From Vairimorpha necatrix (Eukaryota): a stretch of DNA of 64,000 bases. The notes beneath the pieces were generated by a model, which saw only the letters and a list, made by a program, of their open reading frames with translations, was not told the origin of the DNA and made no database searches. The stretch's first letter is position 1. Each line of letters starts with the position of its first letter. A program made the position numbers and the translations under genes. The DNA lies in the NCBI GenBank assembly GCA_036630325.1, contig CP142731.1, positions 868,001 through 932,000 on the forward strand. Reading direction: 5' to 3'. This document shows positions 3,848 through 24,030 of the stretch, in pieces.

Positions 3848-4640
3848 GGGGTGCCCTTAGCACAGTGGTAGAATGCAATGCTTCCATTGAGCAATGGCTG
3901 GGTTCGATTCCCGGGGGCACCAAAATTGTTTCTACTTTCTATGATGCAGTTGGAACAACTCAGATGATGAAAATGTCCACGATAATCATTAAGTTGATTC
4001 AATGAAACTTGTGTGTGTCCAGCCACGGGGGGATTAGCATCTAGTGTAGAAACGCACCTCAAAGCCAAAAAAACAGTATCACCCCTGTGGTGACTTAATG
4101 ATACATAAATGAATCTAATGGGTACGGCCCAGTTTGAGCCCATGGCTGGTGCACTCTAGAGTGGGATCCTAGAACTAACTAAGAGACTAGACGAAGTAGG
4201 GCAATAGAAGGTCTCGTGGACCCTATCCTACATGATTCTGTAACACGGTGGCCGAAACTAGTGGGAGACAGTGGTCAACGTAGCCCAATAAAAACGCCGG
4301 GCTGGTGATGTGGTCGTGTAAGGAGCCGTGTGTGCAATGTGGATGCTTGTAGATACCTTTGAGTCAGTACGATGATGTCTCTCCTCGGGTTTAAATAGCC
4401 ATCCCCGTTTAGTATATCCGCTGTGAGGTCACTCTGGACGCGATTTGAGGTATAAATGGAAAGTGTTCTCCTGGAGCCAAAGTCCAATGGATACGGCGGA
4501 GCTTGCTGCAACTGGCAAGTTGTATGGTGGGAGTTTTAGTGAGTATGAATCTCATAGTACCAGTTGGATGAGGATCACATTCAAATCCCTCTGGTCCCTA
4601 TGTAAGGTTTCTCCCTACCTCTTACTTTCAAGAAAAAAAA
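3848..4640 (+). mobile_element. tRNA-derived SINE-like element, copy 1
   Basis: tRNA-like head at 3850-3922 (GGTGCCC/GGGCACC stem, A box TAGCACAGTGG, B box GGTTCGATTCC), ~720-bp body, A-rich tail, 14-bp direct repeat TCAGTACTACATTT at 3832-3845 and 4641-4654. Homologous copies at 23.2 kb and 51 kb. Confidence 0.85.
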
Positions 4641-6004: not shown

Positions 6005-6832
6005 TTATGCAACCTCATATGATCCATCAAATGCATTTAGTTTTTCTATTTTTCTGGTTATATTTATTCTAATCAAGAACAATATTACTATTAAAGTATA
6101 ACATGATTCTAATATATACAAAAGAACTAAAACATAGATCTTGAAAAAACATAAAAGTATTATTATATAGGAAAATAAAAAAATCCACAAAGTTATTATT
6201 AATATGTATGAAAAAATGTACACATCTTCTTTATCAATTTTGCTATTGTAAACAATATAGTCTATGACCAAACATACAAAATTTATAGCATGAGATACAT
6301 AAAATAAGTGCCTTTCGTTTGTAAAAAAATCTTGCATTATTAAGAAAGTTTGAAAAATCAAAGTTGCTTTTTTACTCGTACTAATCATTTCTTCGACAAT
6401 ATAAAGTTTAAATTTTAAATAATCAATACCTGCTCGTTTATTGTACATATGATAAACTACCTGATTATCTTCATTCATTGTAAGCACCAAAAAAATTATT
6501 GTTATACAATTTACTACAATAGCGATTACAATTTCTGGAACAAATTCATTTATGATACCTAAAAAAATAACAAATAGAAATGAAAATCCTCTACAAAGCA
6601 AAATTTGTAATCTAAAAGCCATACTTTTTATAAAGTAAAATCCGGAATAAAAAGCCATTTCCATAATAAATAAAAATTTTGTAAATGTTAATAAATATTT
6701 TGATAATAGTGTTTCATAATCCTTTCGTCTATGAGAATGCTGATGGTTTAATGCATATTTACTTATTAACATATCTAAAATTAGACTTGAAAAATAAAGA
6801 GTCAGATAAATCACGTGTTCCAAAAATTTCAT
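6005..6832 (-). CDS. Multi-pass (7-8 TM) membrane protein, family member 1 (subfamily A)
   Basis: 275-aa ORF with repeated hydrophobic segments, CCCC upstream of ATG, and family motifs SKYLL, MExxFYSGFYFIK and YNKRAGxD shared with the other paralogs. Confidence 0.9.
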   Translation of the reverse strand: MKFLEHVIYLTLYFSSLILDMLISKYALNHQHSHRRKDYETLLSKYLLTFTKFLFIMEMAFYSGFYFIKSMAFRLQILLCRGFSFLFVIFLGIINEFVPEIVIAIVVNCITIIFLVLTMNEDNQVVYHMYNKRAGIDYLKFKLYIVEEMISTSKKATLIFQTFLIMQDFFTNERHLFYVSHAINFVCLVIDYIVYNSKIDKEDVYIFSYILIITLWIFLFSYIIILLCFFKIYVLVLLYILESCYTLIVILFLIRINITRKIEKLNAFDGSYEVA

Positions 6833-8622
6833 TGGGGATAATATAAGAAATAAAATTTTTTAAATGTCATAACAAAAATTTAACTTTTTTTTATACTGCA
6901 TATTATGCTGTTATTTCAGTATAAAATGTGATTAATGTGGATTTAAGGATATTTTACTATCGAATACGAAATTCGATTTACATTTTCTATTTTCGTTTAA
7001 TGGATTTAATAAGGCATTTAGTTCTTAGGTTTTTTTAAAAGTTCTTTTTACTTAAATGTTAATAAAATATTCAATAGTATTACATATAGTCTATGACATA
7101 ACGTTGAGTAATTTTATGTGATATAATTGACATTTTAAACAAACATTCGTTTTTTATCCATATAATCAAATTTTCTGGTTTAAAACTAGTATATTATACA
7201 AATTAATACAATTCCTTTCATTTCTTCATATGAAGATAAACGTGCATGATCTTAAGTCTATAAAATTTTATGTGAAGATCATCACTAAACTTTGCTATAA
7301 GTGTTGAGTTTTAAAGATCTCTATCACTGCATTTATCGGGGACCTCAATACATCAAAGTTTTATTAAATGGTATGACTACATGTAAAGATATAAAATGTT
7401 GTAAAATAGGTGTATACATTAATTGTTTTTGTGTAATTTATGAACATATTGCTAAAATAAAGTAAATCATATTTTTTAATTGTAATAATGTATGCAAATT
7501 TTGTTTTTATTTACATTTAGAAACATGTTAATAGGAGTGTTGCAGAATATATAATAAATATTGAATGTGCTATTAAATATTATTTAAATAGTGAATTTGA
7601 AATTTTAGTATCTAGTATTATGTTTGTTAAATCAAATGACAACGATTTATTTGTTATTATATATTAACCAAGTATTTATCTATTTAATTTATAAGAGAAA
7701 AGTATAAATTTTAACATCGTTGTACGAAGTAATCAAAGTGTTGAACATTCAAGGCTTAGTTCAAAATTATAATATTGTACAAATGATAAAAAATTATACA
7801 TAAATTACTATAATAAACCTATTTCATGCCATATTTGATTTATAAATTAGTTTAGGTGTAACCTGAACTATATAAAATAATAAATGTGCAAGATTTAATA
7901 TGGGTACCATGATAATGTTTGTTTTATAACAATAAAATACAGTACAAATAAAAATAAATTCTGAACCAAAAGGCAACAGTGTGTAATTGCATTTATATTT
8001 TTAAGTTAGGTATCGTAGGCTTTTTACTTGTTATAAATTCCATCTTCCTATACAATTTAAATGAAAAATTAATCAACGTCATAAAATTATTCTGCTTATA
8101 AAATGGTCAAGAACAAAAATCAGGGATTCTAATAGATACATTCAACTAGAAATATAATTAAAACATAACATTATTACTTTTGATTATCGCAAAATATTGA
8201 AATTTTCAACGAGGTCACCTATTATTTTTTCCTTTGTGCTTATAAAACTGTCTCGCATCCAATTCCCGGATATTTTCCTAAAAATTGCACCCCGATTTAG
8301 TTTAAGAAATTTGATATTAGTTTTGACAATGTTTAATGCATAACTTTTATTTTATCTTGATTGGCTCATTTCTATACAAGTCTCGTGGCTTGTCGACAAA
8401 AGTATGACAATGATGAATTAGTTTTATTAGACAAAATAAAAAATGAAATGATGATAAAAGTTGGAACACTACTAATAACCTTATACTTGTATAAAAAGTG
8501 AAGCTAATAAGGATGATGTTCTAATCGACAAATTTCCTTGATATATTCAAATTTGAGTTTGTATAAGTATCAATATGGAAGATCATAATTACATATTGTT
8601 GGACGATTTTTCAAATAAACAA

Positions 8623-10424
8623 TGTCGCAGTTAGTAGAGGGAACCAGTTAGTAGAGGGAACCCTAAAAAAGAGCTCTGTGGGGATCGAACCCAGGACCTC
8701 TCGAAGAAAACAAAATTTACTAAAAAAGGAAAAAAAAATATTATTAAGAAAATACAGTAACATTATCCTTCAATTTTTAGTAAATAATTTTTTGTTTTGT
8801 GGGGTTATGAGAATAAAAATGGACAATGATAAAAGACAAGAAGTTTATAATTTTTTTATTATATGGTCAGCTGCCACCAACGTTGTTGGACAAAGTTGAT
8901 CGTAAAAATTTTAAAAGAAAAGCTGAACGTTTCATGTTGTTTGAAGAAAACAACAATGGAAGTTTTGAACTAACTGTGAGGTTTAAAGTAGATCAATATA
9001 GATCATTGAGATTCTTTACAACCAATGAGCAGCGTTTCAAACTGGATTTCATCAAACTGATTCATGTTTCTAATGGACATCCTGGGCGTGACAGATTGTA
9101 TCCATTGTTACAATCAAAAGTATACGACGTTACTCAAAACGAAGTACTGAGAGTTTTGAAAAGTTGTGATATTTGTCAAGCAAGAAGAAACCTAATAACT
9201 AGACCAGTTATTAGACCAATCATTTCAAAATATCCTAGAGAAAGGTATATTGCTGATTTGATTGATCTTCGATTGTATCACGAACTCAATGATGGGTATA
9301 AATGGTTACTTAACGTAGTGGATTCATTTACCAAGTTCTGTTGGACGGTTCCATTGCGTGACAAAACTGGCATTAGTGTGCGTGATGCCTTTGAAACACT
9401 ATTCAATACGTTTGGATCTTGTTTTATACTTCATACCGACAACGGTAGAGAATTTGTTAATCAATATATCGTGAATTTATGTGTAAAGTATGAAATAAGA
9501 CATGTAAGAGGAAGAGCTAGATGTCCTTGGATACAAGGACAGATAGAACGATGCAATCAAACAATAAAATGGATGATTGCATCTACTCTGAGGTCGAAGA
9601 ATATCTTAGGGCAATGGTCCATAGTACGCCAAGAAGTTACCTGGGCATATAACAACTTAAGGCATTCAACAACTAAACAAACTCCATTCAGTTTAATGTT
9701 TGGTAAGCCCATTAAAGACATAATGCAAGAATCTAGAATCACTGATATAATAGATTCGGTTGCAAATAACGACGAAGTTGAAAATGAGGAAGAAGCACGA
9801 AGAGAAGAATTTGTTTTTGAAGAAAATAACGTCGTAAATTACGAAGAACTATATGCTTTAAACAATGAAAATCTTTTTTTAAATGAAATTTACCACGAAT
9901 CTGCACGGTTTAATACTCAAAATGCTGCTAATAGAATGATTGAAAGAAGTATGTGGAGAAATGACTTTTACGAATATAAATTGGGAGATAGGGTTCTTAT
10001 AAGACCATATTTAGACAATAATCAAAGTACTAGAAGGCTTCCTCTATACGAACATTTGGATGTCGATGTATATATTGTAATGGATATACTTCAATTTAAT
10101 AAAGTAAAGTTATCTAAAGAAGCTGATCCATTGGTTATTATAGAAGAAATTTACACTAGAGATCTAAGATTGCTTGATAACGAATAAATTTTTTAAAAAG
10201 TTGTTTATTTTATTTTTTTATTTCTTTTCCCTCCAAATTTATATAAAATTACTCGAAATATACCCCATAATATAATTAGGACAAATTTAGAACCGTCTCA
10301 AAAAAGTCGTTCATTGTGATTGTATTCCTTCGAGAAGTCCCAAGTTCGATTCCCACGGGGGTCTTTTTTAATAAATTTTTTTAGGGTTCCCTCTACTAAC
10401 TGGTTCCACCAACTAACTGTGACA
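8623..10424 (+). mobile_element. Ginger/TDD-like DNA transposon (Gypsy-type integrase, TIRs)
   Basis: TGT...ACA ends; imperfect TIRs of ~85-95 bp containing a tandem CAGTTAGTAGAGGGAAC unit; 5-bp TSD AACAA (8618-8622, 10425-10429); one integrase ORF and no RT. Confidence 0.85.
8826..10187 (+). CDS. Integrase-type (rve) DDE transposase
   Basis: HHCC motif (HVSNGH...CDIC) and catalytic core ADL / HTDNGREF / GQIERCNQTIK. The true start may be ATG 8819 with a frameshift in the T7 run at 8851-8857. Confidence 0.9.
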   Translation: MIKDKKFIIFLLYGQLPPTLLDKVDRKNFKRKAERFMLFEENNNGSFELTVRFKVDQYRSLRFFTTNEQRFKLDFIKLIHVSNGHPGRDRLYPLLQSKVYDVTQNEVLRVLKSCDICQARRNLITRPVIRPIISKYPRERYIADLIDLRLYHELNDGYKWLLNVVDSFTKFCWTVPLRDKTGISVRDAFETLFNTFGSCFILHTDNGREFVNQYIVNLCVKYEIRHVRGRARCPWIQGQIERCNQTIKWMIASTLRSKNILGQWSIVRQEVTWAYNNLRHSTTKQTPFSLMFGKPIKDIMQESRITDIIDSVANNDEVENEEEARREEFVFEENNVVNYEELYALNNENLFLNEIYHESARFNTQNAANRMIERSMWRNDFYEYKLGDRVLIRPYLDNNQSTRRLPLYEHLDVDVYIVMDILQFNKVKLSKEADPLVIIEEIYTRDLRLLDNE

Positions 10425-10831
10425 AACAATAATTACAGACAGTCGTCTAGAAATATATCTAATCCCCTTCCCCTGAGGATAATGTTAAAAGTATTTATTA
10501 AGAAACAGCAGGCCCAGAAACGATAGAAGCGACGAGGAATGAAAAAAGATTGATAATTATATATATAAAATGAATTAGAACTTTATAGAAAAATAAAAAA
10601 GATATCCTATTAATGTGATGCAACAATAAAATAAGCATAATAGAAATACTTATTTGAGAAAAACAATTTTCTTCCTAGATCTTATTTTTATATATTCAAT
10701 TTATATAGAAAATTTGACATCGTATCTATATTGCTAAGTATTTTAACCGAACTGACCTGTAATGTTCAAAACTATGATTTTTGACATGTATAAATTAGAA
10801 TATAATCTAACAATGCATTTATTAAATCTTT

Positions 10832-12944: not shown

Positions 12945-13766
12945 TTATACAACTGCGGATGTTCCATGAGTATTTCTGCGTTTGTTTATTTTTCTAATTA
13001 TATTTGTTCTTATTAAGAAAAATATAACTATAAAAGTATAACTAACTTCTAATAGAAATATCAGAATCAATTGATATACCTTATAAAAGCACACCAATAC
13101 GATTAACATGGACAATCCAAAGATCCACATAGATACTATCACAACATAAGAAAAAATATAAATATTTTCTCTTTTAAAATGGCTCTTAGAAACAAAATAA
13201 TTAATTGTTAAACATGTCAAATTTATGATGTGATATGTATAATATTCGAGCTCTTCTTTTGTAAAAATATCTTGCAATGCATAGAAAAATTCCCAAATTA
13301 ACGTTACTTTTACACTTGTATCAATCAGTTCCTCGACAATATATAGCTTAAATTCTAAATAATCGATACTGGCCCGTTTATTGTACAAATGGAAGACTTC
13401 ATCATTATCTTCATTCATTGTAAGTGCTAAAAAAATCATTGTTATACAATCAATCACAATTCCAATTATAACCTCTGCGTTCCATTCATTTATTATACCC
13501 AAACAAATAACAAATAACAAAGAAATCCCTCTACAAAGCAAAACTTGCAATCTAAAAGCAATACTTTTTATAAAGTAAAATCCGGAATAAAATGCCATTT
13601 CCAAAATAAATAAAATTTTTGTGAATATTAATAGGTATTTTGACAATAATATCTCAGAATTGTTATGTAATTGAGTATGATTTAGAATGTAATTGCTGAT
13701 AAACATGTCTAAAATTATGCTCGCAAAATATAGAGTCAGATAAATCATATGCTCTAAAAATTTCAT
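12945..13766 (-). CDS. Multi-pass membrane protein, family member 2 (subfamily A)
   Basis: 273-aa intact ORF, CCCCAAAA before ATG, closely similar to 40094-40915. Confidence 0.9.
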   Translation of the reverse strand: MKFLEHMIYLTLYFASIILDMFISNYILNHTQLHNNSEILLSKYLLIFTKILFILEMAFYSGFYFIKSIAFRLQVLLCRGISLLFVICLGIINEWNAEVIIGIVIDCITMIFLALTMNEDNDEVFHLYNKRASIDYLEFKLYIVEELIDTSVKVTLIWEFFYALQDIFTKEELEYYTYHIINLTCLTINYFVSKSHFKRENIYIFSYVVIVSMWIFGLSMLIVLVCFYKVYQLILIFLLEVSYTFIVIFFLIRTNIIRKINKRRNTHGTSAVV

Positions 13767-23240: not shown

Positions 23241-24030
23241 GAGGTGCCCTTAGATCAGTGGTAGAAGGCAATGCTTCCATTTAGCAATGGCTGGGTTCGA
23301 TTCTCAGGGGCACCAAAATTGTTTCTACTTTCTATGGTGCAGTTGGAACAACTCAGATGATAAAAATGTCCACGATAATCATTAAGTTAATTCAATGAAC
23401 CTCATGTGTGTACAGCCACAAAGGGATTAGCATCTAATGTAGAAACGCACCTCAAAGTTAAAAAGCAGTATAACCCTTGTGGGTTACTTAATGATACATA
23501 AAAGTATCTAATGGGTACTGCCTAGTTGGAACCCATGGCTGGTGCTCTCTGGGGTGGAATCTCAGAGCTAACTATGAGCCTAGACGAAGCAGGGCAATGG
23601 AAGGTCAAGTGGTCCCTATCCTATAAGATTCTGTAAAGCGCTGGCCGAAACTAGTGGGAGACTGTGGTCAACGCAACCCAACAAAAACGCCGGGCTGATG
23701 ATGTGGTCGTGTAAGGTATCGTGTGTGCAATAAAGATGATTGTAGGGACCTTTGAGACAGTACGATGATGTCTCTCCTCGGGTTTTTTATAACCATGCCC
23801 GTTAAGTATATCCGCTGTGAGTTCACCCTGGACGCGATTTGAGGTATAAATGGGAAGTGTTCTCCTGGAGCCAAAGTCTAATTAAAACGGCGGAGCTTGG
23901 TGCGCCGGTAAGTTGTATGGAGGGAGTTAAAGTGAGTAAGAATCTCACAGTGCCAGTTGGATGAGGCTCACACAAATCCCTCTGGTCCCTATGTAAGGTT
24001 TCTCCCTACCTCTTACTTGCAAGAAAAAAA
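23241..24030 (+). mobile_element. tRNA-derived SINE-like element, copy 2
   Basis: Full-length similarity to copy 1, A-tail, degenerate TSD (CACCCTTAATGCCGT / CACTTTATGCCGT), empty paralogous site near 48240-48252. Confidence 0.85.

Follow-up and report, generated by a model that had tools for sequence, protein, structure and literature searches.

Anatomy and Recent Mobility of the Element

The window, by which we mean the whole 64,000-nt stretch of DNA analyzed here, carries at positions 8623-10424 a Ginger-type integrase DNA transposon of 1802 bp (hereafter family 1). Target-site duplications (TSDs) of 5 bp, AACAA on both sides, flank the element at 8618-8622 and 10425-10429 on the plus strand, and self-comparison delimits terminal inverted repeats (TIRs) of 48 bp at 8623-8670 and 10377-10424, which are 92% identical and extend imperfectly through the tRNA-derived pieces described below. 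The left TIR begins with TGTCG and contains a 17-bp tandem repeat, while the final bases of the right TIR are TGACA. Comparison of the element with itself revealed no long direct repeat and no LTR. The transposase gene, delimited by domain search and family copies, occupies 8807-10187 on the plus strand and encodes an H2C2 zinc finger and an rve DDE core without a reverse transcriptase (RT).

The genome to which the window belongs (15.0 Mb in 12 contigs) holds 12 family 1 insertions with 95-100% identity, one of them split by an insert. All 10 copies with resolved ends have 5-bp, AT-rich TSDs that differ between copies. In public run X1, one contig runs directly from one flank of the window copy to the other and skips 1807 bases, equal to the element plus one TSD (1802 + 5), indicating that the insertion site is polymorphic; run X1 could be related to the source of the window, and shows the empty allele all the same. 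The anatomy, TSDs, and empty site demonstrate that family 1 has been recently mobile by a cut-and-paste route and, with the H2C2 and rve domains, uphold the initial identification of an integrase DNA transposon. A terminal-pattern search found no MITEs of family 1, 24 of its 25 matches being ends of the 12 copies. On either side of the element, at 6005-6832 and 12945-13766 (minus strand), are similar-looking hydrophobic ORFs of 275 and 273 aa, probably members of a tandem membrane-protein family.

The Transposase and Its Classification

The family 1 start codon is at 8807. Relative to copies L002 and L003, which encode 459 aa, the window copy is frameshifted in the T-run at 8851-8857, and its longest open frame spans 8826-10187 (453 aa). 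Public runs X1 and X2 likewise lack that T-run base, suggesting that the frameshift is either specific to this copy or an assembly slip. Domains PF17921 (H2C2) and PF00665 (rve) scored above cut-off and no others did, with RT/RNase H, OTU, and Ulp1 domains all absent. Among 26 protein matches, the named ones come from Dictyocoela, Nosema, Vairimorpha, and Enteropsectra, along with three labelled Octopus; two of the named homologues may share an organism with the window and would thus not be independent. The host is probably microsporidian. The names are mostly KRBA2/SCAND3-like or Pol, a likeness to the KRBA2/SCAND3 clade, which the main text of PMC3575427 derives from Ginger2. No literal GPY/F motif is present, but inspection by eye shows a G-D..V module close to the C terminus and, ahead of the zinc finger, a weak F/Y-P-F pattern.

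Family 1 is a Ginger-type element that is nearest to Ginger2/Tdd and a candidate member of that group. Similar to Ginger2/Tdd elements as the main text of PMC2836005 describes them, it has TGTNR termini (TGTCG and TGTCA), a TIR within the range of 45-297 bp, one H2C2 plus DDE integrase without RT, and an AT-rich target, and its 5-bp TSD is that of TDD-4/TDD-5, whereas animal Ginger2 elements have 4 bp (PMC2836005). In contrast, family 1 is shorter (1.8 kb versus 2.7-6.7 kb), has by-eye traces of the YPYY-like and GPY/F-like segments that Ginger2 is said to lack, and carries tRNA-derived boxes; tRNA is mentioned nowhere in that main text. Family 1 also falls in a different clade from the Ginger2 family with a 4-bp TSD in its own genome (47-row tree). 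Ginger1, as described in the same main text (PMC2836005), shares the TGTNR termini, H2C2 plus DDE, and traces of integrase modules at both the N and the C terminus, but it duplicates 4-bp CCGG/CCGT targets rather than 5 AT-rich bases, and family 1 has neither the OTU or Ulp1 domain found in most Ginger1 elements nor a literal GPY/F.

tRNA-Derived Pieces at Both Ends

Adjoining each TIR on its inner side is a tRNA-derived piece that points outward. The left piece (8665-8703, minus strand) consists of a variable loop that starts with CGA from 8703, a T arm containing a consensus-matching B box at 8691-8681, an acceptor-like strand that runs to 8671, and a T6 run at 8670-8665. The right piece (10331-10369, plus strand) is more decayed, with CGA from 10331, a B box at 10343-10353 that has A at position 52, and a T6 run at 10364-10369. 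The sequence-only reading had placed these pieces at 8671-8706 and 10328-10369, and both strings are present there, but with small offsets in where CGA begins. To score them, we used a weight matrix derived from 38 distinct 21-nt T-arm segments of the genome's own tRNAs, which themselves range from 12.7 to 42.2 bits. The left piece scores 34.5 bits and the right 25.3 bits, and for neither piece did any of 300 dinucleotide shuffles score as high, in agreement with the earlier observation of outward B-box pieces and T6 runs inside both ends. Thirty gypsy loci (98,055 bases) from the same genome contained no T-arm match of at least 12.7 bits.

The two pieces are 80% complementary over 46 nt, which suggests that they are two versions of one piece within an extended imperfect TIR; when the two ends are aligned outward, their main difference is a 13-bp indel. 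In one family 1 copy (L012) the left piece has right-type bases. Neither piece is an intact tRNA. ARAGORN and Rfam found no tRNA on the family 1 element and no cloverleaf with paired stems is present, while ARAGORN with lowered thresholds returned mostly junk calls. The T stem keeps four of five pairs on the left and one of five on the right, against a tRNA average of 4.98. No exact match to either piece occurs among the host tRNAs gathered, a set that lacks at least His. The best match to the left piece is an intron-bearing tRNA, which we read as Ile(TAT) and ARAGORN as Leu, with 21 of 22 positions shared over the variable loop and T arm and a different acceptor strand; Ala(AGC) is second best. 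Since no exact match exists and the acceptor strand differs, no tRNA identity can be fixed for the pieces, including the "Pro/Ala-like" one assigned at first.

It had also been claimed that the 5' half of the tRNA is missing. This holds for family 1, whose A-box scores of -0.9 and 2.1 fall far below the 11.5-20.8 of tRNAs, but not for its relatives, which carry that half. Family 1 therefore has B boxes only, rather than a type-2 Pol III promoter with A and B boxes at tRNA spacing. Its left B box is 108 nt upstream of the start codon (107-109 nt across copies). Retention of the boxes among family 1 copies is uninformative, given that these copies are so alike.

Full A-Box and B-Box Units in Sister Families

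Related families were retrieved by protein search of the same genome. Family 2, with about 70% identity to family 1, has a different TIR and no 5' unit. Its 3' end has a B box and T-run that align with the right piece of family 1, which thus positionally matches the 3' box of family 2. In 5 of the 18 family 2 copies in which a box was found (29 loci examined), the box reads GGTTCGCCCCT and lacks the invariant A; one copy with this type of box (L016) has an intact frame. Families 3, 5, and 6 are more distant, with about 29-37% identity, TIRs of their own, and 5-bp TSDs, and each has a whole outward tRNA-like A-box plus B-box unit upstream of the transposase. When this was tested as a prediction on further loci, the unit was found in 15 of 24, adding families 7, 8, and 9 and bringing the total to six sister families with a full A+B unit. 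The transposases of families 7, 8, and 9 are 31-57% identical to that of family 3 in their best segments; TIR and TSD were resolved for family 7 but not for families 8 and 9.

The nine loci without a unit comprise four family 7 copies whose likeness to the family 5' end stops shortly before the start codon, a fifth family 7 copy with none of that 5' end in its stretch, two family 6 copies that are full but 87-88% decayed, one copy interrupted by the locus edge, and L287, which represents a lineage without the unit. Three family 7 copies (L286, L289, and L290) lose their likeness to the family 5' end at one common point near the start codon, indicating either a subfamily with another 5' end or a shared insertion. 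Family 4, a classical Ginger2 family of the same genome with a 4-bp TSD and a long TIR, has no unit, nor does its relative L142. Loci L121-L127 form a young classical Ginger2-like family of about 2750 bp with a TIR of about 150 bp, a 4-bp TSD, and a 574-aa protein with a cysteine-rich tail that groups with metagenome locus L142; this family may have been acquired from an animal host.

In the sister families, 93-128 nt separate the B element from the estimated start codon, and the gap between the A box and the start codon is about 50-85 nt in the families of this genome. A and B boxes at tRNA spacing are evident by sequence in families 3, 5, and 7 and in the outside loci L143, L166, and L177, and are weaker in families 6, 8, and 9 (B boxes of 0.1-7.5 bits in these three families) and in L169. 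The boxes of families 3, 5, and 7 are near consensus, and a T5 run stands directly behind the family 3 unit. In an alignment of nine families, the cores of the A and B boxes are the best-kept columns. The spacing between boxes is 41-46 nt in most families and 52 nt in family 3, while the stems and inter-box spacers cannot be aligned. Scored in a fixed register, the nine families keep 1-4 of 5 T-stem pairs and 1-5 of 7 acceptor pairs, against 4.98 and 6.95 in 57 tRNAs. The strand and place of the unit relative to the transposase are constant in every case. Boxes that are kept while stems decay, at a constant strand and place, fit a DNA promoter element under selection rather than a folded RNA. 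The tRNA halves of family 1 are a reduced state of this wider feature; its left piece would be the positional equivalent of the sister A+B unit with the A-box half lost, and its right piece probably a second copy.

Distribution Beyond the Genome and Phylogeny

Outside this genome, 93 loci were retrieved. L141 and L225, which gave the two highest scores with the family profile, have TGT ends and no unit. The outward A+B unit is present in all five loci of one clade (L143, L166, L169, L174, and L177), whose named relatives are Nematostella, Porites, Montipora, and Acropora. This cnidarian-type clade has support of 100/100 for four of its five loci in the 47-row tree; its box spacing is 44-45 nt, and 158-232 nt separate the unit from the start codon in the four loci measured. 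The other 27 stand-alone-integrase loci screened, many of them incomplete, showed no upstream outward unit. Viral contigs yielded four distant loci, and later scans of them none. Loci L225, L226, and L227 are eukaryote-type integrase elements inside bacterial genome bins, most likely through contamination.

When 17 upstream regions were scored for A plus B boxes, 10 exceeded all of their 200 shuffles, seven of which had been spotted by eye beforehand, and family 1 passed by its B box alone. The seven regions that did not exceed their shuffles and have no unit are those of family 2a, family 4 (4-bp TSD), L287, L142, L144, L141, and L225; one subfamily without the unit has an intact ORF. The unit is also not general among transposons of this genome. 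The 30 gypsy loci lack it, and 33 Merlin and Tc1 loci (111,597 bases) contained no unit of their own and four strong B matches, which by our reading belong to neighbors (two copies of another repeat, one family 1 end, and one family 7 TIR). At L319, positions 486 and 3168, identical direct copies of a B-box-bearing repeat stand 2.7 kb apart around a Merlin-like gene.

A quick tree, which left out 25 candidate loci or proteins that were short, near-duplicate, or without a core match, recovered a 66-row stand-alone-integrase group that includes the family with a 4-bp TSD (SH-aLRT 91). A more careful tree of 47 hand-picked rows was built without Repbase references and with L117 labelled as unit-bearing by family, its own 5' end being interrupted. 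In this tree each of the three unit-bearing groups has good support, but they do not form one clade; three changes are needed and the backbone is open, so that one gain followed by losses and repeated gains are both possible.

A Possible Role for the Pol III Promoter Boxes

TFIIIC binds the B box and, together with an A box, sets TFIIIB just upstream of the tRNA start. In fission yeast B boxes act at the boundaries IR-L and IR-R, and budding yeast has ETC sites. At the level of sequence pattern, a type-2 Pol III promoter stands back-to-back with the transposase gene in these elements. We infer that a tRNA gene was captured by the lineage and has since been retained as an outward type-2 Pol III internal promoter rather than as a tRNA. 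Host TFIIIC would bind the B box and, where an A box is present, would also bring TFIIIB to the AT-rich spacer in which the transposase promoter lies. Such a portable module would most likely serve to open chromatin or set a boundary, keeping the transposase promoter usable at any landing site. In family 1, with the A box gone and a B box at each end, TFIIIC-only sites would bracket the element, and hardly any Pol III RNA, if any, would arise from the pieces.

That the boxes may recruit TFIIIC, as the sequence-only reading had supposed, is plausible and is strengthened by the sister families, in which the stems decay but the A and B boxes stay at tRNA spacing. We hold with middling confidence that the unit acts as an outward TFIIIC/Pol III promoter module, helpful but not essential, by which the transposase promoter is held open or insulated. 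The module appears dispensable, since 5 of 18 family 2 boxes lack the invariant A (one of these belongs to a copy whose frame is intact) and a 5' unit is missing from family 2. More tentatively, Ginger-type lineages from microsporidia to sea anemones and corals may carry, as their own chromatin boundary, a selected TFIIIC/TFIIIB landing pad that adjoins the transposase promoter in back-to-back orientation, of which family 1 would have a B-only version at both ends.

Searches of the genome found a Tau95 (TFIIIC) domain, an Argonaute/Piwi domain, and a single SET-domain match (L304:1459-2922, minus strand; G000:C11), which across its cysteine-rich and SET region most resembles EZH1/EZH2 (E 5.5e-30). 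Together these make both a TFIIIC reader and a silencing system plausible. The B-block-binding Pfam family (PF04182) and SUZ12 (PF09733) were not found in what was an insensitive search. The EZH1/2-like SET protein hints that this microsporidian-like genome may support H3K27 methylation of the Polycomb type.

To our knowledge, how DNA transposons stay expressed at random and often repressed sites is poorly understood, and a conserved Pol III promoter beside the transposase would be a concrete and testable answer. The families offer natural contrasts within one genome (full A+B, B only, and none) as well as a relative in the model anemone Nematostella. If the proposal is true, these elements would spread TFIIIC sites across compact parasite genomes. 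The A/B unit could also serve as a sequence mark for sorting Ginger-type lineages.

Other explanations fit parts of this evidence. The boxes could descend from tRNA-derived SINE heads or tRNA genes that, in two or three ancestors, inserted upstream of the transposase and have since decayed slowly and neutrally, the second copy having been copied from one end onto the other. Such a history would suit the sight of every stage of decay (full, B only, and none), the abundance of tRNA-derived SINE-like repeats in the genome, the separation of the three unit-bearing clades, the 80% likeness of the left and right pieces, and the mixed bases of L012. We nevertheless consider it rather unlikely, because neutral relics do not account for boxes that persist at tRNA spacing while stems and spacers have become unalignable, or for a strand and place that never vary. 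An alternative product of the A+B units would be a short Pol III RNA, ending at the T-run before the TIR and acting as a decoy, guide, or regulator. Families 3, 5, and 7, with their near-consensus boxes, and the T5 run behind the family 3 unit are what it would predict. Yet the units have no fold or sequence in common beyond the boxes, several lack a clean terminator, and family 1 has no A box and has T-runs upstream of its B box, all of which make a functional RNA improbable.

The same TFIIIC/Pol III module could instead damp transcription of the transposase and so limit harm to the host, for which yeast provides a precedent in the tRNA-gene-mediated silencing of adjacent transcription. A brake would be consistent with the back-to-back geometry, in which about 50-85 nt separate the A box from the start codon in this genome's families, and with the continued spread of subfamilies that have lost the box. 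It would be harder to keep by element-level selection over 30-50% protein divergence, however, and leaves the 3' B box of families 1 and 2 unexplained; we regard it as unlikely. What makes it a rival at all is that TFIIIC on SINE boxes can raise or lower Pol II output: parts of PMC9148063 describe such effects on nearby Pol II transcription for TFIIIC at Alu boxes without Pol III, and describe TFIIIC as a brake at murine SINEs. Least probable, in our view, are the two remaining proposals of the sequence-only reading, that the pieces aid targeting to Pol III sites or are relics of tRNA priming from the primer-binding site (PBS) of an LTR retrotransposon. The left piece does occupy a PBS-like place, just inside the 5' repeat and antisense to a tRNA 3' half, and gypsy elements of this genome have Ala PBS-like stretches of about 24 nt. 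But the pieces have no CCA, their acceptor strand is unlike that of any host tRNA examined, and the element has neither RT nor LTR, while the T-run and the A box (5' half) in relatives point to a copy of a gene rather than of a mature tRNA. As for targeting, the median distance of copies to the nearest of 63 tRNA genes, an incomplete list, was not below random in any of five families (p 0.35-0.92).

Comparison With Known Systems

Cassandra TRIMs, which carry 5S RNA in their LTRs, likewise have a Pol III promoter within the ends of a mobile element. Cassandra is a retroelement that uses a type-1 promoter for its own transcription, however, whereas the elements described here are DNA transposons with a type-2 promoter that points away from the gene. 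TFIIIC-bound SINE boxes, as described in parts of PMC9148063, are similar in being A/B or B-only DNA elements beside Pol II promoters; unlike the present units, these and B-only sites are retroposon heads or host loci rather than part of an autonomous DNA transposon. Dada elements, too, are DNA transposons with a link to the A box and to tRNA genes (parts of PMC8869645 and PMC3706591), but they target tRNA genes (PMC8869645), whereas here the tRNA pieces are inside the element and the insertions are in unrelated AT-rich DNA. Identity with Dada was rejected on this ground, as no insertion into tRNA or snRNA genes was seen and the nearest tRNA gene on our incomplete list is 44 kb from any family 1 copy.

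Within the main texts consulted, PMC5751038 lists Ginger-like sequences in the microsporidian Anncaliia, and PMC4202319 has none. The term "tRNA" is absent from the main texts of PMC2836005, PMC10045372, PMC4202319, PMC5751038, PMC3575427, PMC6839031, PMC3424704, PMC12863088, and bioRxiv 2021.09.26.461848, and the tRNA-related passages in the available part of PMC3845634 concern data sources rather than elements. In this literature, which does not extend to Repbase, Repbase Reports, supplements, or subscription journals, Ginger elements with tRNA pieces are not described, nor are the tRNA-half termini that the sequence-only reading mentioned for some animal Ginger elements. Provisionally, then, tRNA promoter boxes in Ginger-type elements appear to be unreported and novel.

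Other tRNA-Related Sequences in the Genome

B boxes number 279 in the genome, against 133 for the reversed pattern. At 3850-4050 and 23243-23443 of the window (plus strand), ARAGORN calls of "tRNA-Met" are heads of a tRNA-derived SINE-like repeat, whose body of about 130 nt is common to both; among 13 sampled B-box loci, the repeat turned up at another five positions. Much of the B-box excess is probably due to repeats of this kind. At L095-L097 (G000 C2), about 24 nt match the 3' end of tRNA-Ala(AGC) with CCA, and these stretches are probably the unusually long PBS of gypsy elements.
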